A stretch of DNA of 64,000 nt from Chiloscyllium plagiosum. Its lineage: Eukaryota. The notes beneath the pieces are model-generated. The model had not been told where the DNA came from and searched no databases. It saw only the letters and a list, made by a program, of their open reading frames with translations. The DNA lies in contig NC_057719.1 of assembly GCF_004010195.1 (NCBI RefSeq), positions 46,918,470 to 46,982,469 of the forward strand, written 5' to 3'. Shown here one piece after another: positions 10,246-18,500 of this stretch; the stretch's first letter is position 1; each line of letters begins with the position of its first letter. Both the position numbers and the translations under genes were made by a program.

Positions 10246-11075
10246 TCAGCGGCACCCACATCCCTCTACAACCATTTCCTGATAGTTTTTCAGAACAACT
10301 TTATCGTATTCGTCCAAGTAGAGCATTGAGATGGGACTGAGTTCCGTCGGGACACAGCAAGCTTTAGGGATGTTGGCATTGACAGAATTGACCAGGGTCT
10401 GCACGATGGCGTGGTTGGTAGAGTTTAGATGGTCCGCCAGTGGGAACGGGCAGTCCCCGTGACAGTAAAAAGCTTGGTAACCAGGGGGTGCCACTATCCA
10501 GTCGTTCCAGCCCACATCGCTGAAATCCACATAGAGAGAGTGCCTCCTGCAGTGCGATTTGTTTTTCTTACGCCTCTGGCCCTTGCTGCTCCGTTTCACC
10601 CTCCGGGTTAGAGCGTGTCCCTTGCCATCGTGGCTGAACGTTACAAGCAAGGGCCTGAGCTGCGACCAGTCGCCATGCCTCTGCTGCAGTGACCGGCGCA
10701 TCCGGACGTGTTGACTCTTTGACCCGTTCAAGTGGGTGACCTCCACGGCCAGCCCGTGGTTGGGCTGCTTTTGCATGGTCCATCTGAGTACCGCCGGACT
10801 CACATCGAAGCTCTCCCACCGTGTCCTGTTCTGGTGGACCAGCCTGGTGTCTAAGAGCCTGGTGATCAGCTCGCCCTTCTCGCTCGGGGCTCTCATGATC
10901 TCGTACACGTTGATACGGTGGAGTCCGTCGGCCCGGTCCCACACGCTGTCGATTCGCTCCCGGAAAAGCCGCAGCTCTGCGGAAGACAGCACCTCGTTCT
11001 CAGGCACCACGCTGATATTAAACACGAAGCGGAGCTGCGAGTCTTCTCTCTGCCCTGGCATCAGCTCCAAGTGTT
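10246..11075 (-). CDS. BMP4: BMP4 last coding exon (C-terminal prodomain and mature TGF-beta domain)
   Basis: Acceptor aacag at 11080-11076, phase 1. Encodes (E)HLELMPGQ...RVKR/SSK...[57 protein letters not shown]...KACCVPTEL...[12 protein letters not shown]. Has the 7-Cys knot, and YQEMVV/GDCPFPL fit BMP4 rather than BMP2. Confidence 0.98.
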
Positions 11076-11722: not shown

Positions 11723-12074
11723 CTTCATGGTGAAAGCTCCTCACGGTGTTGGCCCGGCTTGTGGATCTCTCAGGATATTCGAAACTAATGTCGTGAGTGA
11801 CCTCGTCCCCGGACTGCAGCCTGTACAGATCCAGCATGTACTGGGGGACGACAGCGGACTTACTGGGCTGTGGGCGCCGTTGCAGTCCGAACATGTTGAG
11901 TAAAGTGGCCTCAAATTCCCGTAGCAGTTCATGGTTTTGCGGAGAGCGACGTCCACCCGCCTGGCTTTGCTCAGCAAACTTTTTCCTCCCTTCCTCTGGT
12001 ATCAGACTAGCATTACCTCCCAGTAAGACCTGGCATAATAAAATTACCATCAGCATTCGGTTACCAGGAATCAT
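11723..12074 (-). CDS. BMP4: BMP4 first coding exon (signal peptide and N-terminal prodomain)
   Basis: ATG at 12074 in context gacacc[23 protein letters not shown] is the diagnostic BMP4 N-terminus, and the exon ends [11 protein letters not shown]. Acceptor ccacag lies just before 12081 (7 nt of UTR); donor G|gtact at 11722. 352+830 nt = 394 codons, giving 393 aa in a continuous frame. Confidence 0.98.
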
Positions 12075-12744
12075 GGTGTCTCTGTGGAGCAAAACAAGCA
12101 ACAACAAAAAAAACCGAATGAGAATTACGAGTAATCTTCAATCAACGCCCCAGAGAGAGAACGCACGACACAGAGAAAGAGAGTGAGAGAAGAGGTATAA
12201 TTACTTGGTCTCAACTCGGTTACAGTTAAATAGCCCATAATCAGGCAGATAGCACCATCCTGTTACTCTTTTGTGTTTTCACTATCTTAGTAATTATCTT
12301 AGACTGGTTTCTTTGGAGGCAACACGTTCAAAATGTTGCACTGGGCATTTCACCAAACGCCTCATGATTTTTGAGAAATGGAGAGAAAAAGGCACATAAT
12401 TCGTGCGAAGAGTTTTTTTTTTAATTTAAAATGTGTTCACATTTCTAGATTGACTGCTTTTGATTGCTATGGGTCTGTCGATGCAACATTTCCTTAATTG
12501 TTTTCGTGATAAGCAAGGTACAAGTGCACCCCCTCAACCGAAACGAATTCTCACCCAACAAGAGAGCTGTAATAGTGTAGGGAAGGACCGCAAGTACATG
12601 TTTAAGAGAGGAATCAAATAAATGGATAAAAACACATAGATATCGCTACAGTATGAAACCGGGAAGTATGAATCCTTATTTATTAGAATAGTATAAAATA
12701 GGTCTACTCACTGACAGAAAACAAGGCAGATGAAAACAGTCCAT
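12061..12744 (-). CDS. Putative spliced overlapping uORF, join(12744..12712,12081..12061), 17 aa [17 protein letters not shown]
   Basis: The only ATG in the 5'UTR exon, in context agaatcATGg (A-3, G+4). Reads across the splice junction and ends at TAA 12063-12061, overlapping the main ATG out of frame. Confidence 0.6.
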
Positions 12745-12832
12745 GATTCTTGACAGCCGATCTTGGACAAGTTCTTGAAAAGCTCAGGGACTCTGGAGCT
12801 TGGCTGCTCGGCTACGTATTATCGAATCCCTC
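12712..12832 (-). other. BMP4: BMP4 non-coding 5'UTR exon (orthologue of mammalian exon 2)
   Basis: Donor ctgtca|gtgagt at 12711 and probable acceptor ttccag|gag at 12833. The spliced product ...ggctgtcaagaatcatggactgtt...tgccttgttttctgtca|agacaccATG matches the human BMP4 5'UTR as I recall it. The 5' boundary is less certain than the donor. Confidence 0.85.
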
Positions 12833-12859: not shown

Positions 12860-13440
12860 AGGCTCTCCGTTTCCTCTCGGCGACGTCAGACAGCCCCTCC
12901 CCAGCTGCCAATCAAGCCACAATCCCCGCCTCCCCGGCTGGCGCTCCGCCCCACACCGCCGGCCCCGCCCCCTAAAGTGAGCACACCGCCGGCCACGCCC
13001 ACTACTGTCCGCGCCCCGCCGGTCACGCCCCAAACGGCGAGGCCGTCGTCAGCCCCGCCCTCTGTATTTATGCGCACCACGCCCCATCTGTCAATCAACT
13101 GCCAGCCCCACCCCCCCCGCAGCTCGACACGGCGGCGACGTCCCCCTCAGGGGCCGCCCTACCGCCCCGCCCCCATCAAAACCCTCCCAGCCGACCCTGA
13201 CCCCTTCAGGCTGCACCCCGCCGGCGCAACCGCATCTGCTAATCAACATCAAGCCCCACCCCCTAAATGTTTAGCCACCTACGTCCCGCCTGTCCCTGTG
13301 TTGGCCAAGGGCGGGCACTGCGATACACAGTGCTGTCAATCAACACACCCACCCCGCCCAAGACACCGCCCACCCATCTCCCCGCCTACTGTCCAATCCA
13401 AATCACCAGCCGCGCCCCAACCACCAATCAAAGGCATGAC
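12860..13440 (-). promoter_or_regulatory. GC/CpG-rich promoter-like region immediately upstream of the 5'UTR exon
   Basis: Many Sp/KLF boxes (ccccgccc, ccacgccc, ctccgccc), CRE-like cgacgtca at 12881-12888, CCAAT boxes (~13393, ~13424) and TGATTGACAG at 13088 and 13333. Confidence 0.7.
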
Positions 13441-13581
13441 CTGCCCACTACTGAAGCCAAGCGGCTCACCCGCTCTCTATGGGGAGCCCCGATTGCTGGC
13501 CATGCACCGTAACCTGACTGGCCTTCACAGACACGAACCCTCATGGCCCTGCCTCCTCCAAAGTCAGGGTTATCCCCCAAC

Positions 13582-14578
13582 CTCAATGTCAGTCACTTTA
13601 TAGACTGGCTCCTTCACTGTCCATCACCCCGCAGACCCGCTCCTTCACTGTCCATCACCCCGCAGACCCGCTCCTTCACTGTCCATCACCCCCGCAGACC
13701 CGCTGTCAATCATCCCATAGTTAAAAATCACACAACACCAGGTCAGAGTCCAACAGGTTTATTTGGGAGCACGAGCTTTCGGAGCGCTGCTCTTTCATCA
13801 GGTAGCTGTGGGAGTGGATCATACAACACAGAATTTATAACTAGGGCCATCCCCCGACCTCAATGTCAGTCAGTATATACACCCGCTTCTTCACTGTCAA
13901 TCACCTTATAGACCCGCTCCTTCTCTGTCACTCACCCTATAGACCCGCTCCATCACTGTCAATCATCCTATAGACCCGCTCCAACACTGTCAATAACCCT
14001 AATGACCCGCTCCTTCTCTGTCACGCACCCTATAGACCCGCTCCTTCTCTGTCAATCACCCTATAGACCCGCTCCATCACTGTCAATCATCCTACAGACC
14101 CGCTCCTCCACTGTCAATCACCTTATAGACCCGCTCCTTCTCTGTCACTCACCCTATAGACCCGCTCCATCACTGTCAATCACCCTACAGACCCGCTCCT
14201 TTTCTGTCGTTCACCCTACAGACCCGCTCCTCGCTGTCAATCATCCTCCAGACCTGCTACTCCACTGTCAATCACCATAGAGGTCTGCTCCTTCACTGTC
14301 AATCACCATAGAGATCTGCTCCTTCACTGTCAATCAACCCATAGACCCACATCTTCACAGTCAATCACCCTATAGGCCCGCTCCATCACTGTCAATAACT
14401 CTATAGACCCACTTCTCCACTGTCAATCAACTTACATACTCTCACTGTCAATCATCCTAGAGGCCCGCGCTAACACTGTCAATGATCCTATAGACCCACT
14501 CTTCCACTGTCAATCATCCTGACCTCTTCCTTCGATGTCAATCACCCTATAGATCTCCTTATTCAGTGGCAATCACCA
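13582..14578. repeat. 31-bp minisatellite, left block (consensus ~gacccgctccttcactgtcaatcaccctata)
   Basis: gacccgctcc recurs at 13911, 13942, 13973 and onward (period 31). Interrupted by a PLE-type terminus at ~13720-13840. Confidence 0.95.
13720..13840 (-). mobile_element. Short PLE-associated terminal repeat containing a minimal hammerhead motif (13770-13804)
   Basis: Minus strand reads tac-CTGATGA-aa-GAGC-agc-GCTC-c-GAAAGCTC-gtg, inserted within the minisatellite. Confidence 0.7.
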
Positions 14579-15675
14579 AATTGATGGTATAGTGGAAGGT
14601 TAGCTAAGACTACAAAGAGATATCGATCAATTGGGTCAATTGCTGATGAGTGGCAGATGGGAGCTAATTTCGGAAAAATGCAAGGTATTGGTAAAACAAA
14701 TCAGGATGAGACTTATACAATTAATGGGAAGGCCCTGGGGAGTGTGGTAAAACAGAAAGGCCTAGGGGTTCGGGGACATAATTCTTTGAAATGTGTGTCA
14801 CAGGTAGACAGGATAGTGAAGAAGATGTTTAGTATGCTTGCAATCATTACACAGACCTTTGAGTCTAGGAGTTGGGATGTCATGTTGAGGTTATATAGGC
14901 CATCGATGAGACCTCTTCTGGAGTACTCTGTACAGTTCTGGTCATCCTGCTATAGGAAGGATATTATTAGGTTTGTGTGCGTTCAGAAAGGATTTACTAG
15001 GATGGAGGTTTTGAATTATAAAAACAGGGTGGATAGGTTGGGACATTTTTCACTGGAGCATAGGTTGAGGGTACCTTGTATAGGTATATAAAATGATGAG
15101 GGCATAGATAAGATGAATAGCAAGGGTCTTTTCACTTAAGGTGGGGGAGTTCAAACCTAGGGAGTATGTTTTTAAAGTGAGAGGGGAAAGTTTTTTTCAT
15201 AAGTGTTTTAGGGTCAACTTTTTACAGAGTGGTTCAGGTGTGGAATGAACTACCAGACGAAGTAGTGGATGCAGGTGCAACATTTAAAGACATTTGTATA
15301 AGTACATGAATAGGAAAGGTTTGAAGGGATATAGGCTAAATGCAGACAAGTTTAGTTTGGGAACATGGTCAGTGTGGACGATAGGGGAGTCCAAAACTAG
15401 AGGGCATAGATTTAAGCTGAGAGTGGAAAGTTATAAAAGGGACCTAAGGGCCAACGTTTTTCATGCAGAGGGTGGTGTGTGTATGGTATGAGCTGCCAGA
15501 GGAAGTGGTGGTGGCTGGTACATTTATAACATTTAAAATGTATCTGGACGGGATACATGAATAGGACAGGTCAAATGCTGGCAAATAGAACTAGATTAAT
15601 TTAGGATAGCTGGTTGGTATGGCTGAGTTGGACTGAAGGGTCTGTTTCCATGCTGTATGTTTCTATGATTCTATG
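14579..15675 (+). mobile_element. 5'-truncated CR1 3' fragment(s) inserted into the minisatellite
   Basis: ORF 14657-15091 (KGLGVRGHNSLK...LYRPSMRPLLEYSVQFWSS) is the CR1 ORF2 C-terminus. The 3' region is duplicated (second copy from ~15381) and ends in a ctatgatt-type tail. Confidence 0.9.
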
Positions 15676-15689
15676 AATCCATGACCTGT

Positions 15690-16210
15690 TAGACCCGCTA
15701 CTTCACTGTCAGTCATTCTATAGGTCTACTCTTTCGGTGTCAATCACCATATAGCCTGGTTCATTCCTGATGAAGGGCTTTTGCCCAAAATGTTTATTTT
15801 TCTGATCATGGGATGCTGCCAGACTTGCTGTGCTTTTCCAGCACCACTCTAATCTTGAACCTGTTCCTTCAGTGTCAATCACCCTATAAACCTGCTCTTT
15901 CAATGTCAATCACCCTACAGACCTCCTCCTTCATTGTCAAACAATCTACAGAGCCACACTTTCACTGTCAATCACCCCACAGACCCACTCCTTCACTGTC
16001 AATCACCCTATAGGCCCGCTCCTTCTGTGTCAGTTACCCCATAGGCCTCCTCTTCAGTGTCAGTCACTCTATAGGCCCACTCCTTCACTCTCAAAACTCT
16101 ATACGCTCACCGTTGCATGCCAATTACCCTAAAGGCCCACCGTTGCACTGTCAATCACCATACTGGCCACACCTCCATCACAGTCGTCACCCAGCTCCTT
16201 CTTCATCGTC
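15690..16210. repeat. 31-bp minisatellite, right block (more degenerate)
   Basis: The same unit (cactgtcaatcaccctataggcccgctccttc) resumes after the CR1 insertion. Confidence 0.9.
15760..15858 (+). mobile_element. Short PLE 3' terminus with degenerate hammerhead (GAAA mutated to AAAA)
   Basis: ttcctgatgaagggcttttgcccaaaatg...gatgctgcc...ttccagcaccactctaatct; same family as 41785-41900. Confidence 0.8.
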
Positions 16211-16229: not shown

Positions 16230-16510
16230 TGACTGCCAATCATCCGGAGCCCCGACAGAGCTCACGGCCCACCTGTCAATCACCGGACAAGACAACACCC
16301 TCCCAACCCGCCCCCAGAACAAGCGACGTCCCAGTGCATGGGCGCCAATCAGAGCGCTAGGCTAGGAGGCTGATCACCTGTCAATCATTGCGGGGTTCGG
16401 AACCTCAGGCTGCAGTCGCCGCTGCTGAAACACCATGAGCATTGCGGCCAATGTGAAGAGAGCCTGGAGACACATGGCCCTGCGGTGCTGCAGCCGGGCG
16501 TGCGATTTTC
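16230..16510. promoter_or_regulatory. CpG-rich unique segment with TGATTGACAG (16273, 16378), CCAAT and GGCGCC motifs
   Basis: Motifs read directly from the sequence. Regulatory function is inferred. Confidence 0.4.
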
Positions 16511-17724
16511 ACATTTCGCCAGAATGAACTCACGGGAATGCTATAATAAAAACAGAAAATGCTGGAAACACTCACCTGAAAGTAGCATCGTTACAGAAAC
16601 ACTGCCCATTACATAGGGCAACATTCAGTGAAAGTTTATGTGCATTTTCACTCGCTATAACCAAAGGCTAATCGATGCTACAGAATTTATATCAATACGG
16701 TTGCATTTTTATCAATTGTAACACCCATGAAATGGGCAACACCGTTTTTTAATGACTGTGTTTCACAAACTGCACCGAAATATTTTGTTTATTTCATGTA
16801 GTGCCTCTCGCTGACAAGTTCGTGTACAAATTCTGTCGACTACCTCCCATATGGAAACGGTTGTAAGTTATTTAATGACATATTTAAAGTAGGAACTCTG
16901 GTATCATAGGGACAAGATCCCATAATAATGCATAGCATTAAATCGCACATTTTCACAGGTTCACAGCAAAACACAGAAGCTCTTAAGTAAGTATTAAACG
17001 ACCCCATCACCCATTTTCACTAAAAGCGTTATCAAAGTGCTCCTAAAATGCATTCACCATGCAATGCAAATTACACAAACATTTCACAAATAGATCACGC
17101 AACGTCGGGTATTTTTATCTTCCAGTTGGACTATGAAAATGATTCATTGGTTTACCAAGGTTTACAGTAAAAAACAGGCATCTGACCTCACAGAAAAATA
17201 CAATCGATCCGAAATGCATGCATTATATACTCGTTAGCCTTCAATCACTCGATAGACTGATCTAATCAAAATCTAAGCAACGCTTTTAATATGTCGCCGC
17301 ATTAAAACACGTAAGTTGGGAGTGTTTAAATCAAGATTTTAATACAAGTTGTCTATCTCCAAAACTATTAATTCAATATTAGCATCTGCAGGATCACTTA
17401 ACTCGGTTCTGGCAATGAACTTTCAAGAAATGAAACCAGCTAAATATTTATATACAGGAAAATCAGTCAATTAATGCTCAAATCACCGCCAGTTTCAATA
17501 AATACATCCTGAGGAAATGTTCGTTATAAAGTGAGTTCTGAAACTCCAAGCTGACATTGTGGCCCTCGCGTTTTGTTAAGTGGAGCACGTGTGATTACAC
17601 TAATAAGAAGCCAATGTGTAGGTAAAATAATTATTGCCAATTTATATCGACTAATTCTCCCGTTTTCACGATACAACCATCTCAGTTTTGCCACATGTAT
17701 CAACAATAGTTAAAGATGACTCAC

Positions 17725-18500
17725 CCTGCAAGTCGCGTACTCATATACTCCACAATAATTGCATCTGCTCGACTATCTGTAGGTAGAGAATTTTTGAACC
17801 AATCAAAATTCAATTTATCTGAAACGGACTGGATTAAGGCGCCAGGGATAGACGCGCTCGAACAAACCCTCATATTCGATCCATTTTAAGAAACCAAACT
17901 GGAACTATCAGTTAATCCCACTAATAAAGTGGCCGCCCAGTTTCTGCAATTTGTTGGAAAGTACGTACGTCATTGTGGTATTTTAGCGGAGTTCATAAAG
18001 CCTCACTTATGCGATCTCTATAATATTCCACTTCCTTCCTGCAGAAGTGGGTAATAGCTGTATATCCAAGGCGATACAGCGTGTGAATACCGTATACTGT
18101 ACACATAACAAGTAGCACATTCCTCTATCACAAGTTTTCTTTAAACTAGCCCCACGGCGTTTATATTAACTTTGCTGTGAACAGCATATTAACTCGTCGC
18201 TTAGGAAGGATTGCATTTTATTCAGAAACCCGCATATCTGTGATCGAGTTCTTCCGGAGCGACAGAAATTCCTGTGAGCAAGAGAAAACAGATTTGAAGA
18301 TAAAGAAAACGCAGAAATTGCAATTACAAAGTCAGTTCGTTGTGTTGGGTGGGGTATACAACCACAGTATGACGAAGATATGTAAAAGTCGGTTTTGGTC
18401 GGTACCAGCAAGTAGCGAATAACTACACGTGGAAAAAAGGCTTGAGATCAGACGAAAGTCAACGCTTTTAAGTGCCCTGAATAATAGCACGCGGTAAAGG
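17725..18500 (-). promoter_or_regulatory. Candidate BMP4 first exon / distal promoter
   Basis: Strong minus-strand donor cagg|gtgagt (GT at 17724-17723) at the edge of a CpG-dense, repeat-free stretch. The 5'UTR exon has an acceptor that needs an upstream partner. No transcript evidence is available. Confidence 0.35.

Follow-up and report, generated by a model that had tools for sequence, protein, structure and literature searches.

The minus strand of the window, the 64,000-nt stretch of Chiloscyllium plagiosum DNA analysed here, carries BMP4 (Table 1). The last 5′UTR exon of the gene contains an ATG that, after splicing to the first coding exon, opens an overlapping upstream ORF (uoORF). 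Positions 12744-12712 and 12081-12061 join into 54 nt, comprising 17 codons and a TAA (12063-12061) that occupies positions +12 to +14 of the BMP4 CDS in a frame other than that of BMP4. Both features of the uoORF class are present, namely a 5′UTR ATG out of the CDS frame (−40 nt, 40 mod 3 = 1) and a stop within the CDS. The BMP4 ATG at 12074 has A at −3 and A at +4, a weaker context than that of the upstream ATG (A−3, G+4). The initial annotation had described this ORF from the sequence: the 17 codons produced by 12712/12081 splicing, with a TAA 14 nt into the BMP4 CDS, match the sequence exactly, and the stronger Kozak context was correctly assigned to the upstream ATG. The statement that 12744 begins the sole ATG of the 5′UTR exon is true of exon 12832-12712 only. 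The 12712/12081 junction, predicted for the shark, has an identical form in the human catalogue entry described below and in 20 gene models.

Table 1. Features of the BMP4 locus in the window (positions in the window)
Feature	Position	Strand	Remarks
BMP4 last 5′UTR exon	12712..12832 (121 nt)	−	Aligned by read-through gene models of relatives; donor after 12712 read in the sequence, 5′ edge placed from relatives' models
Upstream ATG of the uoORF	12742..12744	−	A−3, G+4; 40 nt before the BMP4 ATG in spliced mRNA
uoORF codons 1-11	12712..12744	−	33-nt piece, as in the human catalogue entry
Main 5′ splice site GT (upstream ATG out of frame once spliced)	12710..12711	−	Phase as in 20 read-through records and human coordinates
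Second GT, 4 nt upstream of the main donor	12714..12715	−	Last exonic base 12716; predicted use places the upstream ATG in frame with BMP4 (gene models only)
Intron, 630 nt	12082..12711	−	Starts GTGAGT, ends 7 nt before the BMP4 ATG; −7 acceptor position also in BMP2 and BMP16 of the same genome
uoORF codons 12-17 and stop	12061..12081	−	Covers the first 14 nt of the BMP4 CDS; stop at equal CDS position in BMP2 and BMP16
BMP4 coding part of first coding exon (signal peptide, start of prodomain)	11723..12074	−	117/117 residues identical to bamboo shark BMP4 records P0126, P0127 and P0133
BMP4 last coding exon (remaining prodomain, mature TGF-beta domain)	10246..11073	−	5′ edge approximate; top matches named BMP4, 90% identity

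As a DNA query against its own genome, the UTR exon matched only itself, and tblastn did not locate the exon or exons upstream of it. At 12784-12832 on the minus strand, a frame is open from the exon start until a TGA some 40 nt short of the upstream ATG, at a site comparable to that where human c14riboseqorf38 ends; in this interval, the ray and chimaera records change frame. If an upstream exon supplies an ATG, this frame may form a second, longer upstream ORF in the shark. Directly upstream of the UTR exon lie 31-nt minisatellite arrays of up to 22 copies and a LINE-like fragment (12950-16160), and the GC-rich interval 12900-13400 looks partly like a degenerate minisatellite copy. Further upstream, 16500-18500 is AT-rich with a CpG observed/expected ratio near 1.0, compared to 0.1-0.3 on its flanks, and is likely an unmethylated promoter region that holds the upstream exon. 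Donor-like sites were found near 16574 and 17725.

Human orthologue and conservation across vertebrates

A human orthologue of the uoORF is listed as Ribo-seq ORF c14riboseqorf37 in supplementary file 2, row 2010, of a catalogue of 7,264 Ribo-seq ORFs (PMC10032668). This row assigns it to BMP4 and to the uoORF class, gives its 54 nt as pieces of 33 and 21 nt, and labels it 'conserved', with 0 MS studies. The shark and human peptides share 14 of 17 residues and differ only at residues 4, 5 and 6. A human ORF with the same length, frame and junction and three substitutions had been put forward in the initial annotation, and the table bears this out. Because the 33 + 21 nt exon pieces are shared and the differences are confined to these three residues, the similarity is beyond chance, and the catalogue entry supports translation of the BMP4 uoORF in human. 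Further uORFs of 24-180 nt are listed farther upstream in the human BMP4 leader.

BMP4 is never mentioned in the available main text of PMC10032668, and a literature search on the identifier c14riboseqorf37 found no paper. A search of mainly open papers found no functional study of the BMP4 uoORF. Among the four BMP4 rows in the available part of file 11 of PMC10908861, the uoORF does not appear, and neither does the BMP4 main ORF. The supplements of PMC11057154 have no BMP4 row, and in the searched files of PMC11473369 (three files lay outside the search) BMP4 occurs as expression rows alone. The human ORF is thus already known from the catalogue, which limits novelty; what appears to be new is how deep the conservation goes in jawed vertebrates, the evidence arguing against a role for the peptide, the traces in paralogues and the frame-switching donor.

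Conservation was read from predicted proteins that extend BMP4 upstream rather than from DNA. From 376 proteins, 225 had the canonical BMP4 start, and 47 of these 225 carried an N-terminal extension of at least 10 residues. In twenty extensions, the BMP4 frame continues through the UTR exon and Trp occupies −13; a further 17 start at or run through the upstream ATG in frame with BMP4, and 10 are unlike the exon. Five placental records traverse the exon in the third frame (read by eye). Eighteen read-through records were analysed for substitutions: rays, a shark, chimaera, coelacanth, frog, turtle, two marsupials, eel and eight other teleosts. The substitution count leaves aside the two remaining read-through records, P0124 (from a species already represented by another isoform) and P0255 (two further changes, at codons 4 and 9-10), together with the 10 extensions unlike the exon and the five placental third-frame records.

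The Trp at −13 is invariant in the 20 read-through records, and therefore the TG and G+4 of the upstream start are fixed. Similarly, the residue supplying position −3 is Glu or Gln in 18/18 analysed records, which fixes a purine at −3. Direct proof of the A of the upstream ATG is limited to human and the 17 in-frame records. The ATG-to-ATG spacing of 40 nt is constant in all 37 records that cross the exon end into the BMP4 start (20 + 17). Frame-changing indels occur upstream of the upstream ATG in the chimaera, the coelacanth and placental records (read by eye), and never between the two ATGs. A check of ATG and frame across vertebrates had been proposed in the initial annotation; run on protein records, it showed that start context and spacing are kept from sharks to teleosts and marsupials. 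At the other end of the ORF, all 225 records carry N, S or K as the fifth BMP4 residue, each compatible with the uoORF stop, of which the T is not readable from proteins and is seen in the shark genome and human only. The uoORF is real and ancient. Conservation covers the entire UTR exon and extends to third codon positions and to the bases ahead of the ATG; therefore, part of the uoORF conservation may be a by-product of another nucleotide-level element.

Related arrangements in BMP16 and BMP2

In the same genome, the acceptor lies 7 nt before the ATG in both BMP2 (G000:C86127) and BMP16 (G000:C41). As in BMP4, CDS positions +12 to +14 of both genes make a stop when read in the uoORF frame, and the three genes form it with three different codon pairs; 2 of 24 synonymous codon pairs would form the stop in BMP2, and 2 of 24 in BMP16. 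Among 14 donor-like candidates in 14 kb searched for BMP16, one has the 9-nt donor of BMP4. The exon it defines provides a BMP16 uoORF whose ATG (A−3/G+4) lies 34 nt before the main ATG in the same frame as the BMP4 uoORF and which is open for 15 codons to the +12 to +14 stop. In BMP2, a same-frame ATG 52 nt upstream has T at −3, and its ORF ends after 6 codons, i.e., a truncated uORF. Gene models of Chiloscyllium punctatum, seen after the prediction, use both junctions: P0329 for BMP16, with 15 identical residues before the start, and P0341 for BMP2, with 35 residues. Among 20,000 dinucleotide shuffles per exon, 1.3% reproduced the BMP16 pattern and 0.8% the weaker one of BMP2, under criteria chosen after seeing the data. 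No alignment of the BMP4 exon with that of either paralogue reached significance when set against shuffled sequences (p 0.15-0.38).

The three genes are thought to derive from an early vertebrate genome duplication (PMC6395752, whose available text does not mention uORFs). Given the matching uoORF of BMP16 and the truncated same-frame uORF of BMP2, the arrangement may predate the BMP2/4/16 split. It is not kept everywhere in BMP2, since the nearest listed human BMP2 uORF starts 72 nt upstream in another frame.

Several further observations were made at these loci. BMP2 is split in the assembly, with its first coding exon on a 6-kb contig (G000:C86127) and its last exon at G000:C9:96149863. In BMP16, 12.2 kb separate the UTR exon (G000:C41:5949305, minus strand) from the coding exon that follows it, and a purine-rich leader and TATA-like bases stand ahead of the UTR exon. 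BMP16 has another short ORF in the same frame, of 2 codons, beginning at −106.

Proposed function of the upstream ORF and alternative readings

Out-of-frame overlapping uORFs typically repress the main ORF and are passed by leaky scanning, according to the available text of a review (PMC10275272). From this layout we infer repression with leaky scanning in BMP4 as well. Ribosomes that initiate at the stronger upstream ATG would finish beyond the BMP4 start, and BMP4 would be made mainly by ribosomes that scan past the upstream ATG. The uoORF is thus probably a cis-acting, peptide-independent translational attenuator bypassed by leaky scanning, and the diversion of most scanning ribosomes would be expected to give a low, fixed BMP4 yield per mRNA. 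Selection likely keeps the start, its context, frame, spacing and the underlying nucleotides, and not the peptide.

A switch at the second GT would add to this attenuator reading rather than displace it. Two GTs stand 4 nt apart, each in a donor-like context, and both donors have a poor exonic U1 match (7 vs. 6 matches in a crude count). Splicing at the 12715-12714 GT is predicted to shorten the mRNA by 4 nt and to bring the upstream ATG into the BMP4 frame, with a 12-residue extension ahead of the signal peptide; translation of the window by this route is identical to P0126 over 129/129 residues. The in-frame form occurs in 17 predicted models (five sharks, two chimaera records, five frogs, two lizards, two bird records and a marsupial), i.e., in 17 of the 47 extended records, from at least 16 named species in five groups. 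In several RefSeq sets, it is isoform X1 and the plain form is isoform X2; RefSeq isoform models draw on RNA-seq. We infer the use and the effect of this donor from the models: the weaker upstream donor would give a minor mRNA whose BMP4 begins at the upstream ATG, carries 12 additional residues and escapes the brake.

A regulated splice switch, in which donor choice sets BMP4 output, with the main donor repressing and the upstream donor releasing, would account for the spread of the in-frame form across the five groups, its listing alongside the plain form and the difference of a single U1 match between the donors. However, longer ORFs are favoured by gene predictors, no in-frame record was seen among the listed placental or ray-finned fish members (15 listed per cluster, e.g., 15/486), and the second GT is absent from BMP16. 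Moreover, four-base shifts are the commonest class of tandem-donor error and are often minor, and an upstream GY at −4 occurs in about 9% of constitutive exons, as stated in the available text of PMC2423196; noise is therefore a fair reading of the second donor, and a regulated switch seems unlikely. We hold in similarly low regard the broader model of a dose switch that would predate the BMP2/4/16 duplication, with one ATG either braking (main donor) or starting an extended, fully secretable BMP4 (upstream donor). The four-base splice choice would then tune output by tissue or stage, BMP16 would have kept the brake, and BMP2 would have shortened it to a reinitiation-permissive uORF.

Other splice forms were noted among the records. 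In the placental models P0015, P0174, P0175, P0178 and P0180, the UTR exon is spliced to an acceptor within the first coding exon and the BMP4 ATG is skipped, which would give the upstream ATG a third splicing outcome. Many 346-residue isoforms have a later start and lack the signal peptide.

It is also conceivable, although improbable, that conservation of the exon serves splicing, protein binding or a cryptic non-ATG in-frame BMP4 extension, and that the uoORF itself has little effect. The reach of conservation upstream of the ATG and into third positions is consistent with this, as is the BMP4-frame read-through, identical over 20 residues between shark and Dromiciops. However, indels disrupt the BMP4 frame upstream of the ATG in three lineages and never between the two ATGs, the upstream start context is invariant, and the human ORF is catalogued as translated. 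In addition, both paralogues have a same-frame ATG with GA after it, in exons that are otherwise unalignable with that of BMP4 (shuffle rates 0.013 and 0.008, post hoc criteria).

The position of the stop raises the question of coupled termination-reinitiation, in which a stop kept shortly after the BMP4 ATG would let ribosomes that complete the uoORF move back and initiate anew on BMP4. The uoORF would then be a metering relay instead of a simple brake. The recurrence of the +12 to +14 stop in BMP4, BMP2 and BMP16 through three codon pairs, although only 2 of 24 synonymous pairs give it in each of the two paralogues, is in line with such a role, and the available text of PMC10275272 describes limited retrograde movement for slightly overlapping ORFs, mainly viral. 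Viral cases, however, require a structured upstream element, and no stable RNA fold was found in the 121-nt UTR exon (z = 0.47). The shark BMP2 uORF ends earlier, so the +12 to +14 stop is unused there, and the same review treats translation of an overlapping uORF and of its main ORF as mutually exclusive; we consider this reading very unlikely.

The initial annotation had further suggested that control might depend on the peptide through 'two Cys and a His pair'. In such a conserved-peptide uORF, the 17 residues would stall the ribosome or act in trans. The identity of 14 of 17 residues between shark and human fits this idea, and the second positions of codons 1, 2, 3 and 10-13 are kept in 18/18 records. 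For the substitution pattern, dN/dS was approximated from records in different frames, with BMP4-frame residues reporting the second and third positions of uoORF codons. Second positions showed 6 distinct changes across the 18 records and third positions 7, of which 6 were synonymous transitions and 1 was non-synonymous. The excess of synonymous over amino-acid changes that marks conserved-peptide uORFs is thus not seen in this comparison based on protein records. The six synonymous changes favour peptide selection little, as transitions there are synonymous almost whatever the selection.

Koala and Dromiciops show 0 third-position changes from the shark across codons 2-13, yet another marsupial, the in-frame record P0027, has two amino-acid changes in the uoORF peptide. 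As a yardstick from the older paralogue split, third positions in the mature domain differ at 54 of 91 identical residues in BMP2 and 44 of 73 in BMP16. Conservation of codons 9-13 is accounted for by the splice sites and the BMP4 start context, and the frozen third positions of codons 3, 6 and 7 are not. The proposed residues vary: Cys8 is altered in the coelacanth and in 9/9 ray-finned fish records, and substitutions of His5 occur in frogs, birds, lizards, mammals and teleosts. The BMP16 uoORF peptide is dissimilar. For c14riboseqorf37, the supplementary table of PMC10032668 gives PhyloCSF values of 6.95 in primates and −16.30 in mammals for an ORF that is short and partly overlaps the CDS, and its count of MS studies, as given above, is zero. 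Judged from these substitutions, the peptide does not evolve like a selected one; the suggested Cys/His dependence was not supported, and a peptide-acting uORF is a highly improbable explanation. According to the available text of PMC13275300, many uORFs retain start, stop and frame without amino-acid constraint, and the BMP4 uoORF fits this general pattern, with start and frame kept and the peptide not.

A peptide-independent attenuator would bear on a dose-sensitive gene. BMP4 is dose-sensitive in people, and loss of one copy leads to eye, kidney and skeletal disease, as stated in the available text of PMC9222743. A conserved brake in the leader offers a direct and cheap test of whether translation sets BMP4 levels. 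The uoORF is also a place in which to interpret 5′UTR and splice variants of patients, and a possible target for raising the output of the remaining BMP4 allele.

Comparison with known systems

The human c14riboseqorf37 is orthologous to the shark uoORF, with a common junction of 33 + 21 nt, length, frame and stop in addition to the shared residues. Its catalogue entry carries a 'conserved' label based on mammals and no function, and does not address sharks, paralogues or the second donor. The inhibitory overlapping uORF of ATF4 is uORF2. Overlapping uORFs of the ATF4 type, as covered in the available text of PMC10275272, share with it an out-of-frame ATG and an ORF that ends in the CDS and is expected to exclude initiation at the main ORF. 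In contrast to ATF4, the two BMP4 starts are only 40 nt apart and the overlap is 14 nt; the likeness is one of layout.

Conserved peptide uORFs identified by ESUCA (PMC7530721), whose main text does not include BMP4, are likewise deeply conserved short leader ORFs, but the BMP4 uoORF lacks their peptide-type substitution pattern. ESUCA filters transcripts that fuse a uORF to the main ORF as spurious, whereas in BMP4 the fusion form may be part of the design. The A5E delta-4 tandem donors described in the available text of PMC2423196 also consist of two overlapping GT donors, the major one downstream and the weaker one upstream. About 94% of these lie in coding regions, where they mostly create premature stops. 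In BMP4, by contrast, the shift falls in the leader and is predicted to convert a repressive ORF into an in-frame extension.
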